Virus record (IMG/VR): IMGVR_UViG_2698536428_000020
From: a virus
Taxonomy: Duplodnaviria; Heunggongvirae; Uroviricota; Caudoviricetes
Length of the DNA stretch: 39,678 nt
Strand: one strand, 5' to 3'
Numbering within the stretch: position 1 is the stretch's first letter; the number at the start of each line of letters is the position of its first letter. The position numbers were made by a program. Below, piece after piece: positions 24,001 through 27,000 of this stretch.

Positions 24001-27000
24001 AGATCAAGCTGAAATCATTGATGATATTAACCTTGCCGGGTACAGGCTGCACCAGTTGCAGGGTGACAGATCCGATACATGGTCTGTCACCGTCTCCGGT
24101 AACTGGAGAATCACATTCGAGTTTCGGAACGGCGATGCTTATATTCTTAACTACGAGGATTACCACTAATGGCGATGTTTAACCCCCCTCATCCCGGAGA
24201 AATTATTGCTGATATTCTGGAAGATCAGAATATTGGAATCAGGGAACTGGCAAGAGCGCTTGATGTCGCGCCTTCCACTGTTCAGCGACTGGTTTCAGGT
24301 AATGCGACAATATCTCCTGAAATGGCTGTTCGTCTCGCTGCTGTCCTGGGTGGAACTCCGTCTTCATGGATTCGTCTCCAGACGGCATGGAGCCTTGAAA
24401 AAGCGGAAAGAGAAGTTGACGTATCTCATCTCTCAACAAAATACCGCCCGGCAGAAATTTCGCCTCATGCTTAACCACCGCGCCGTCATTCTGGCGGCGC
24501 TTTACCCCAGAGAAATATCAATCACCGGATTGCCACATCCCACTCCGGATCCTGCCATCTCAAATCCGGTGAATCATTTCTCGCCGGAATAACCATTACG
24601 TCCTTTTCCCTCCGCTCCCTTTCTATCGCCATCACAGCCAATGCTGCAACCATGATGTATTTTTGTTCGTCGGTTCCTGTTTCATAACGACGCATGAGGG
24701 TAAACTCGGGGCGATCAGTAACCTCAATGATTTCGTTAATTTCTTTAATTTCGAGAGGAATATCCATGAGTTTAGTCTCCTTTGACATTACATGCCCACA
24801 CTGTTTAAAAGAGCGAGCTGTTATTGAGGCATTTGCCGAAAAACAAATTGAAAAAACACCTCTTTTTAACGTCGCTTTTGTATGCAGAAGTTGTCATCGA
24901 GGAGGTGTTGCTATTGTTGAAATCCCATCAGACCACTATCACGGCCCCATGGCGGAAAGCCAGAAAAAAGACCTCGATATTCTGATTTCAGGAAATAGCC
25001 AGTACCGTTTCCGCAAGATCTATCCTGCGGTCAAAAAAATTACCGCACCAGAATATACGCCCCCGGTTGCAGACCGTACTTTTGTTGAGGCAAAAGAGGA
25101 TTTACAGAGGAGGCGGTACGACACAGTGGTAATTCTTTGTCGCAGAGTCCTCGATATCTCCACGAAAAAACTGCTCGGCGATGAAGCAGGAAAAGAATCG
25201 CTGTCGCAACGTATTCAGATGATTTACAAAAAAGGGCTGATCACTGAACAGATGAAGGAATGGGCTCATATTGTACGAATTGATGCCAATAAAGCAGTTC
25301 ATACAGATGAAGTTTTCACACCAATTGAGGCAAGCCAGATCCTGAGTTTTACCGAAATGTTTTTAGTCTACGCCTTCACTCTGCCTGCAATGGTGGCAGC
25401 CAGACGTGAACAAAAAAGATCAGATTCAGCCTCTATATGAATCACTTTTCTGAACACGTAAGCCCCCGTCATTCACGACGGGGAGAACATCAATCCCTCT
25501 GCACTCCCCCGCCAGAATGCCAGCACACGCTGCATCGTTTCGCTGTTACGGCACTCGCGACAAATTATGTTGTAGCGTCTGTCGTAGCGCCGGATTTCCC
25601 CATCAGGTAATGCCCGGATAAGACCAGGGTCAATAACAACCGGTTTCTTTGCCTTTGCTCTCGAGAGTTTTTTGCGGGCATTTTGCCAGTCCTTACGCGC
25701 CTGATCAGACGGGAATAAACCATAACCTGAGTCGAATATAGCGCCACTGACAACCAGTTCTCTGGACAAACGTCTGACAGCTGTCTTGCTGACTCCGGTT
25801 TCAGTAGCCAGTTGCCTGAACGTTCCCCGACCATTCAGGCGCACGAGCTCCACAATACGTGCCTTCAGTTCTTCCCGCTGTTCGGGTGTAAATACTTTTG
25901 CCATAAGCTCTCCAGTTATCACTTTTCCGATGCAATACTGCTGGATGAATCGGTAATCTGCATGACAAGTTCCCGGTGTTTATTCAGCTCACGTAGTGCA
26001 GCACAGACACGCTCCCACTTCTGGACCTGTTTTTTGGCGCGACGAAGTTCACGACTGGCGGCCCGTAGAGGTGGAAGGGTCACTGCACCAGCATATTTTT
26101 CGGTGAACGACGGAACATCCCGGATAAACTCATCTGTACAGGCCTTTGCCGTGCCCTCTGACATCAACGGAAAACGATTCAGTTCGTCGCCTGACGCGCT
26201 GTTTTCTGCTTCGTGCGTGATATTCTCATCCTGCGATGATGACGCGCTCAAATCGCCGTTTTCGACGTCAGGCACTTTATAACGGAATTTTCCCTTGATA
26301 GACACGCGCACCAGGCGCCCCGTTGCTGTTACTACCGCCAAAGTGGAAGCAACCTTACGAGTGGTAACTCCGAACTTACCCGCTATTTCTTCACAGGTTT
26401 TAGCCCCCTCCTGAGCGATAAACTCAATCATCATGTCAGCGCTAACTTTTGGAGCGACCTCTTCGGTTACCACATCCGGCGCTTCAGATTGTAGTGCCTG
26501 CCCTTCGGTTACCCCGGATTCACCTTCGACAGCCAGAAACCAGGTGTGACCCGTTTTATCAACAACACCATTTTTTTTGAGTTCCCACAGTTCGTTGAGA
26601 ACTTCTTCACGGCTGATATCAAGCCGCGCCGCCAGTTCAACAGAATTGGCTTTACCCATCGCTTTCAGTGCATGCAATACGGTTTCCATCGAAAATTTAC
26701 CTCGTCAAAAATTCTCACATACCCTGACGCCCAACGTTTGACCGCCAGCTCTCCCAGTTAAAATTCACCCAACGACCACCGTTCATGGTCATACGGTCCA
26801 TCACCCGCTCGCCGAGGAGTGTGCTCATAGCTGCGTGATTCAGGTTCGTCAGCATCCCGACACTGCGCAGTGATGCCGTTCTGCGGTCGACGATCTGGTT
26901 CAGTATGACCTGCTCGTTGCGCGTATCCCGCTGCATGCCAATTTCATCAAGGACCAGAAGGTCTACCCCGCAAAGTTCCTGTAAAAATTTTTCCCCGGAC

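Follow-up and report, generated by a model that had tools for sequence, protein, structure and literature searches.

The stretch of DNA considered here, IMG/VR virus record IMGVR_UViG_2698536428_000020 (39,678 nucleotides at its full length; hereafter the window), is a Stx1a-converting prophage with its insertion site beside ynfG, and carries on its plus strand a gene for a protein of 224 amino acids (aa) which combines an N-terminal zinc ribbon with a C-terminal DUF4145/HEPN domain. The gene probably belongs to a known type of anti-phage gene, and is likely to encode a prophage-borne abortive-infection ribonuclease (RNase) of the RAZR/PD-T7-4 type. The reading is based on the domain architecture, the HEPN fold, the conservation of the zinc-binding and catalytic residues, a remote profile homology that extends over the full length of the protein, and an antisense position within prophages. 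PD-T7-4 was recovered in a functional selection by Vassallo et al. 2022 (PMC9519451) and was renamed RAZR, for ring-activated zinc-finger RNase, by Zhang et al., Nature 2026 (PMC13017515). The architecture is thus not a new kind of system, and the statement in a preliminary description of the window that it could not be recognised as a named defence system has to be withdrawn. The gene belongs to a sister clade with a distinct sensor domain, and what looks new, and was not expected, is a tightly conserved partner gene located head-to-head with the nuclease gene.

Translation of the plus-strand open reading frame (ORF) recovered the CPHC, CRSC and RIDANKAVH motifs that had been read from the DNA, and RefSeq annotates an identical coding sequence (CDS) as 'DUF4145 domain-containing protein' (WP_000060692.1). 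The gene and its parts are located as follows:

24766..25440 (stop codon included), plus strand: CDS of the RAZR-like protein, 224 aa, zinc ribbon plus DUF4145/HEPN (translation, RefSeq)
24793..24894, plus strand: Cys4 zinc ribbon, codons of C10 to C43, with CPHC at aa 10-13 and CRSC at aa 40-43
24922..25005, plus strand: clade-specific insertion between ribbon and linker, aa ~53-80, with a helix at 61-68 (gap in the hhalign alignment, structural model)
25021..25062, plus strand: proline-marked linker, aa 86-99, with invariant P87, P95 and P99
25063..25431, plus strand: DUF4145/HEPN helical domain, aa 100-222
25276..25302, plus strand: predicted catalytic motif RIDANKAVH, R171-H179 (Rx7H)

The proposed DUF4145/HEPN assignment is borne out by a Pfam match to DUF4145 (PF13643, clan CL0291) across aa 118-197, with a score of 36.9 bits (E 3.8e-9) where the gathering cut-off is 23.1. 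The AlphaFold 2 (AF2) model (predicted local distance difference test score, pLDDT, 90; predicted template modelling score, pTM, 0.78) presents the alpha-helical HEPN fold, with HEPN-MNT structures (5yep, 7ae2/7ae6/7ae8) among the best solved-structure matches of the C-terminal domain, and a single long C-terminal helix is predicted at aa 186-222. The ribbon is represented in the model by the strands E20-27, E33-40 and E46-52, and a profile of 34 family sequences weakly matches RPB9-type ribbons, which the authors of the RAZR study also take as their reference (PMC13017515). Within the alignment of these 34 sequences C10, C13, C40, C43, R171, D173, N175 and H179 are invariant; as this includes all four cysteines together with R171 and H179, the motifs are not a product of chance. 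The R-x7-H spacing is that of RAZR, and not the canonical x4-6. An NCBIfam search of the protein returned nothing useful. Fusions of a zinc ribbon to DUF4145 were already listed in a 2013 survey of HEPN proteins (PMC3710099).

Relationship to RAZR and proposed mode of action

RAZR joins a Cys4 zinc ribbon at its N-terminus to a C-terminal DUF4145 domain, the latter a divergent HEPN RNase, with its catalytic residues R146 and H154 likewise arranged as R-x7-H; alanine mutants of these residues lose defence (PMC13017515). It works as a single gene by means of abortive infection, is harmless when overproduced alone, and depends on its linker as an important element. Activation involves the assembly of 24 copies around ~170 Å rings of a phage protein, either an Erf-like recombinase or the portal proteins of T3, T7 and SECphi18, and the activated enzyme cleaves single-stranded RNA, while the zinc-finger domain, the most variable part of the protein, sets its specificity (PMC13017515).

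Using the sequence of RAZR_Ec (E. coli UMB1727) taken from PDB 9y9c, BLASTP aligned 109 residues of the linker and HEPN with the window protein at 27 % identity (E 1e-5), and the R and H residues fall in register. The search for RAZR homologues was rerun with the full-length query, a fragment query having returned only short or truncated proteins. When a broad alignment of 185 window-family sequences was compared by hhalign with one of 119 RAZR homologues, the probability was 97.4 % (E 1.4e-11; 171 columns), and the match spans residues 7-212 of the window protein and 13-190 of RAZR. This alignment pairs C10/C13/C40/C43 with C16/C19/C49/C52 of RAZR and P87/P95/P99 with P66/P74/P79 of the RAZR linker (66-79), and also brings together the Rx7H motifs (R146..H154 in RAZR) and the C-terminal helices. 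The zinc ribbon and R-x7-H motif pointed out initially are thus both conserved within the family and aligned to RAZR. The PADLOC hidden Markov model (HMM) of PD-T7-4 matches 17 of the 34 clade members, at best with E 2.8e-7. As judged from these alignments, the window protein is a co-linear but remote relative of RAZR, belonging to a separate family at the level of HMMER and joined to it only by profile-profile comparison. Considering this remote homology and the ~28-residue insertion, the family can be viewed as a large sister clade of RAZR, found mostly in prophages. The full-length homology to a characterised abortive-infection RNase lends support to the original suggestion of a candidate defence or abortive-infection gene.

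By analogy with RAZR, a lysogen would probably produce the protein in a latent form, possibly as the latent oligomers suggested by the RAZR work, from the antisense moron gene. Upon infection by another phage, the N-terminal zinc ribbon may recognise an assembly of a phage protein, and the ensuing oligomerisation would join the C-terminal HEPN domains such that R171 and H179 form composite active sites. These sites would cut RNA non-specifically, halt translation and abort the infection, and so protect both the lysogen population and the resident Stx1 prophage. In this scheme expression in the lysogen, cleavage of RNA and the abortive phenotype are inferred, and so, above all, is what the trigger would be. 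The trigger is probably unlike that of RAZR, since the sensor domain has diverged and carries the insertion.

Distribution and prophage setting

A profile search of 1.84 billion representative proteins identified 3355 relatives at E<=1e-3, with 214 of these at E<=1e-30. Among the best 150 relatives, nearly all of the full-length proteins (~200-230 aa) contain two CxxC motifs and R-x7-H, while roughly one in four of the 150 is shorter or lacks part of its N-terminus. The variant of the DUF4145 gene found in the window was detected by megablast in 37/5426 complete E. coli genomes, and the same gene is present in the Stx phages 75/02 Stx and POCJ13 and in the Escherichia phages PhiR5_2 and PhiR12_3. 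Within prophages the family is found in several slots, including that between the replication and nin genes (E. coli, Cronobacter and Yersinia), beside int/xis (Enterobacter kobei), between the lysis and terminase genes (Enterobacter and Klebsiella phage 2b LV-2017) and between cII and the replication genes (Burkholderia phi644-2). Furthermore, a distant member (25 % identity) is found in the P2-like Escherichia phage Cartapus (L005 162..860), within the P2 cos-portal hotspot, which is known for defence genes such as old and tin. Across 108 loci drawn from genomes and IMG/VR, the family gene is almost always a lone gene antisense to the flanking phage operon. An arrangement of this kind is typical of morons that lysogens express. 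One Yersinia prophage (L033) encodes, besides a RAZR-like gene and its head-to-head small ORF, a BstA_C-domain gene next to a cI-like repressor gene (9490..10410). BstA is a known prophage abortive-infection protein, and this prophage thus holds two candidate abortive-infection genes.

The DNA of the window between 20000 and 30000 is identical in E. coli JNEC-KY208, where the RefSeq gene coordinates are those of the window. The early-right operon, consisting of cII, the O-like, DnaC-like, DUF1627 and DUF977 genes, the antirepressor and nin genes, Q and stx1, is encoded on the minus strand, and the sole plus-strand genes in this stretch are higB, higA and the RAZR-like gene. These make up an accessory island flanked by the replication genes (O-like, DnaC-like, DUF1627, DUF977) on one side and by the antirepressor/nin genes on the other, with both flanks on the minus strand, which is the location that had been proposed. 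The GC content of the RAZR-like gene (0.42-0.47) is slightly lower than that of the replication genes (0.50-0.59). No plus-strand promoter for the RAZR-like gene was identified when the sequence was scanned for sigma-70 sites. Within this gene, on the minus strand at 25171..25211, two terminator-like hairpins with T-runs are located in the path of the early-right transcript; terminator-like sites in the region are not above the shuffled expectation (4 vs 2.2 +/- 1.4). With no promoter found and terminator-like hits no commoner than in shuffled sequence, the transcription units are therefore inferred ones.

The head-to-head small gene and alternative readings

Directly upstream of the RAZR-like gene, and divergent from it, lies a small ORF. 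Its features, and those of two further genes of the same prophage which bear on its possible role, are:

24522..24767, minus strand: small ORF, 81 aa, PHROG 8371 (function label none), predicted three-helix core (RefSeq CDS)
24765..24768: CATG, through which the two start codons share 2 nucleotides (plus-strand ATG 24766..24768; minus-strand ATG 24767..24765)
24755..24758, plus strand: putative Shine-Dalgarno-like GAGG for the RAZR-like gene, within codons 3-5 of the small ORF (sequence reading)
24777..24782, minus strand: putative Shine-Dalgarno-like AAGGAG for the small ORF, within codons 4-6 of the RAZR-like gene (sequence reading)
5687..7831: portal gene
36531..37316: Bet gene

The PHROG 8371 match begins exactly at the methionine of the small ORF (ATG 24767..24765), which is co-oriented with the early-right operon of the phage, while the RAZR-like gene is antisense to it. 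When the family proteins of 111 loci were grouped at >=80 % identity, thirty-six clusters could be distinguished, with the small ORF always present in twenty, mixed in two and absent in fourteen. Upstream divergent homologues occur in Cronobacter, Enterobacter, Symbiopectobacterium, Tatumella, Rosenbergiella, Photorhabdus, Yersinia and a Zoogloeaceae metagenome-assembled genome (MAG). They share 20-48 % identity with the small protein of the window, are ~55-80 aa in size, retain the invariant residues R19, P20, E21 and L24 and have a predicted three-helix core (pLDDT ~88). The possibility that the small ORF is an antisense artefact was rejected in view of this conserved protein family with its invariant residues. 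The CATG start overlap, which had been remarked upon for the window, is kept in 63/64 loci with the small ORF, from E. coli to the Zoogloeaceae MAG (~35 % identity), and the overlapping divergent start is a real, conserved feature. Searches with the small protein matched it to none of the known antitoxins, regulators or anti-defence proteins.

The small ORF also occurs on its own. It is found in 48 complete E. coli genomes, while the window variant of the DUF4145 gene is megablast-detectable in only 37, and in phage phiSTEC1589-Stx1c it is present without the nuclease gene. The RAZR-like slot of this phage (L029 2621..3504) holds unrelated cargo, namely an annotated ORF of 166 aa and, overlapping it on the other strand, one of 96 aa. 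From precisely the second codon of the small ORF onwards the sequence is again homologous to the window, and this point therefore marks a sharp boundary of cassette exchange. Since the head-to-head ORF is kept in more than half of the lineages, the term 'single-gene', which was applied to the system at the outset and is accurate for RAZR itself, may be incomplete for this clade.

The other plus-strand genes of the island, just upstream of the RAZR-like gene, are:

23891..24169, plus strand: higB (PF05015, E 1.4e-21)
24169..24474, plus strand: higA (HTH_3, E 4.9e-10; RefSeq 'HigA family addiction module antitoxin')

They encode a HigB-like toxin of the RelE fold followed by a helix-turn-helix (HTH) antitoxin. 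The toxin-antitoxin (TA) cassette upstream of the small ORF is swapped among near-identical prophages, with higBA in the window and RelE/ParE+HTH in two others (L001 8063..8702; L007 2319..2946), while a further one (L006 2001..2952) contains RelE/ParE+HTH plus an orphan higA identical to that of the window. Distant family loci contain no TA cassette, and at family loci no conserved co-directional partner of the RAZR-like gene was observed. A functional partnership between higBA and the RAZR-like gene was therefore rejected on the grounds that the cassette is exchanged or absent at related loci; of the proposed accessory island the location stands, but higBA is not a conserved component of it.

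The RAZR-type reading has to be weighed against several observations. It rests on the sequence and a structural model for this clade, and the homology to RAZR is remote by HMMER. The PADLOC PD-T7-4 HMM matches the window protein weakly (E 1.3e-3, 16.2 bits, 45 % of the model), the 34-sequence profile reaches 9y9c in a PDB search only at E 0.062, phmmer of the window protein against the PDB gave no match, and hhalign with narrow alignments gave 66.6 %, confined to the HEPN core. To these can be added the missing plus-strand promoter and the existence of DS-38, a defence protein compared below, which shows that proteins combining a zinc finger with HEPN may rely on another type of finger and, possibly, on another mechanism. 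Furthermore, a difference in regulation is hinted at by the partner ORF, which is conserved in this clade but was not seen at the single canonical RAZR locus that was inspected. A more elaborate version of the RAZR-type reading, which refines rather than replaces it, holds that the locus is a two-gene module in which the small head-to-head protein is a functional partner of the RAZR-like RNase. This is conceivable, though doubtful. It accords with the directly upstream, divergent homologues in 20/36 clusters (two more being mixed), the near-universal CATG overlap, the invariant residues and predicted three-helix core of a real protein family, the opposite orientations of the two genes relative to the phage operon, and the apparent placement of each ribosome-binding site within the first codons of the other gene. 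The survival of the small ORF alone in phiSTEC1589-Stx1c, and in 48 versus 37 genomes, resembles the pattern of an orphan antidote. However, fourteen of the clusters lack the small ORF, RAZR itself is a single gene (PMC13017515), and no resemblance of the small protein to known antitoxins, regulators or anti-defence proteins was found; the small ORF could simply be a backbone gene flanking a moron slot, given that the swap boundary in phiSTEC1589-Stx1c falls at its start. Two forms of partnership share the reserve with which the two-gene module is put forward. The small protein may be a self-immunity factor, made from the early-right transcript on induction, which keeps the portal and Bet rings of the prophage itself from triggering the nuclease, or the layout may be excludon-like, with face-to-face transcription making the two expression states mutually exclusive. 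Bet forms rings. The action of lambda Ren versus RexAB, and of the aba element versus BstA, offers analogies for self-immunity and is not evidence for it. Slightly more speculative still is the idea that the interlocked module is a lysogeny/lysis switch, where the nuclease would be produced in the lysogen and the early-right antisense transcript would, on induction, yield a neutralising small protein. Were this so, the small gene would, where it occurs apart from the nuclease gene, be a portable counter-defence against RAZR-like enzymes.

Readings that dispense with defence altogether fare less well than the RAZR-type RNase. An addiction-type HEPN toxin, which would stabilise the prophage in the manner of the neighbouring higBA without any sensing of phage, is improbable. 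HEPN RNases are common as the toxins of TA systems, HEPN-MNT structures are among the best fold matches, and the RAZR-like gene adjoins a TA cassette. Yet no antitoxin gene, whether MNT or another, is co-transcribed with it, the sole linked gene is divergent and absent from 14/36 clusters, and the conserved zinc-ribbon sensor would have no role in a simple toxin; it is the lack of a co-transcribed antitoxin, and the observation that RAZR is not toxic when overproduced alone (PMC13017515), which place this explanation low. Less probable still is a regulatory or DNA-binding protein serving the phage's own cycle, with a ribbon that binds nucleic acid and a HEPN domain that is a scaffold. The protein matches PHROG 1305 (E 3.5e-63), which carries the label 'DNA binding protein', and RefSeq phage records repeat this name. 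The label is, however, an automatic name without support. The R and H of the catalytic motif do not vary, the gene runs antisense to the phage operons and, in the manner of a moron, moves between unrelated slots, and its closest characterised relative is a defence RNase.

Further elements of the prophage and comparison with known systems

Several RNA and regulatory elements were observed elsewhere in the window. Back-to-back with higB, a minus-strand element (23609..23827) starts with a strong sigma-70-like promoter (23827..23798, TTGACA-18-TATATT), followed downstream by Rfam matches to the Hfq-binding small RNA (sRNA) isrK (23718..23791) and the C4 antisense RNA (23609..23692), both on the minus strand, after which comes a truncated ORF6N antirepressor gene (23245..23556). 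Together these make up a P1/P7-type c4-ant immunity module. Two minus-strand matches to Rfam sRNA-Xcc1 (23016..23099 and 22101..22190; 75.7 and 67.5 bits) each directly precede an ORF6N/BRO antirepressor gene (22314..22976 and 21415..22059, respectively), which suggests repeated units of a leader RNA plus an antirepressor. A full-length match to the sRNA STnc100 (195 bits; 16704..16917, minus strand) is found directly downstream of stxB1a (16996..17265) and upstream of a SASA-family esterase gene.

If the protein is RAZR-like in function, the Stx1-converting prophage would provide its Shiga toxin-producing E. coli (STEC) or Shigella host with a suicide RNase directed against competing phages, which would bear on phage therapy and on the ecology of Stx phages. 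As the clade is large, mostly prophage-borne and weakly scored by the one model tested (PADLOC), its annotation would fill a gap in defence-system catalogues. The diverged sensor amounts to a natural test of the idea, derived from RAZR, that the zinc-finger domain sets trigger specificity, and the conserved partner raises the question of how a prophage that makes portal rings spares itself from its own ring-activated nuclease.

Among the known systems, DS-38 (HEP2, WP_001313577.1) of DefensePredictor is a validated single-protein E. coli defence (bioRxiv 10.1101/2025.01.08.631726; PMC13092281), in which a zinc finger is joined to a HEPN domain, and for which the authors report alignment with PD-T7-4 in the HEPN part only. 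The pairing of zinc finger and HEPN domain is shared with the window protein, but DS-38 has another accession, is named 'hypothetical protein' and has a gene span of 1101 nucleotides (8089..9189), or ~366 aa if this is the CDS; the two are set apart by description only. On accession and gene length, identity of the window protein with DS-38 was rejected. The HEPN-MNT toxins (5yep, 7ae2/7ae6/7ae8), which the RAZR study uses as the same reference structures, resemble the window protein in the C-terminal fold, but are without a zinc ribbon, contain an Rx4-6H motif and are neutralised by an adjacent MNT nucleotidyltransferase; no nucleotidyltransferase is found among the window neighbours (higBA, the small ORF and DUF977). 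Lambda RexAB/Ren, BstA/aba and the Gifsy-1 HepS (PDB 9oik) have no sequence relationship to the window protein beyond the HEPN fold. The self-sparing role envisaged for the small ORF is likened to the way in which prophage abortive-infection systems spare the resident phage, as an analogy and not as a finding.

RAZR remains the closest point of comparison. The one large difference is the ~28-residue insertion after the second CxxC of the window clade, for which a single long C-terminal helix is also predicted, where a helix-loop-helix is predicted for RAZR (PMC13017515). The genes of the window clade run antisense in prophages, both lambdoid and others; the RAZR_Ec-like gene, at the one locus examined, is instead encoded behind two integrase genes in the same direction, is not in a lambdoid prophage, and no head-to-head small ORF was found beside it. 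Both are proteins of ~210-225 aa with a Cys4 ribbon whose first knuckle is CPHC, a P-x7-P-x3/4-P linker and a C-terminal DUF4145/HEPN domain in which R-x7-H is set inside R-I-x-x-N-x-A-V-H, and both are encoded on mobile elements.

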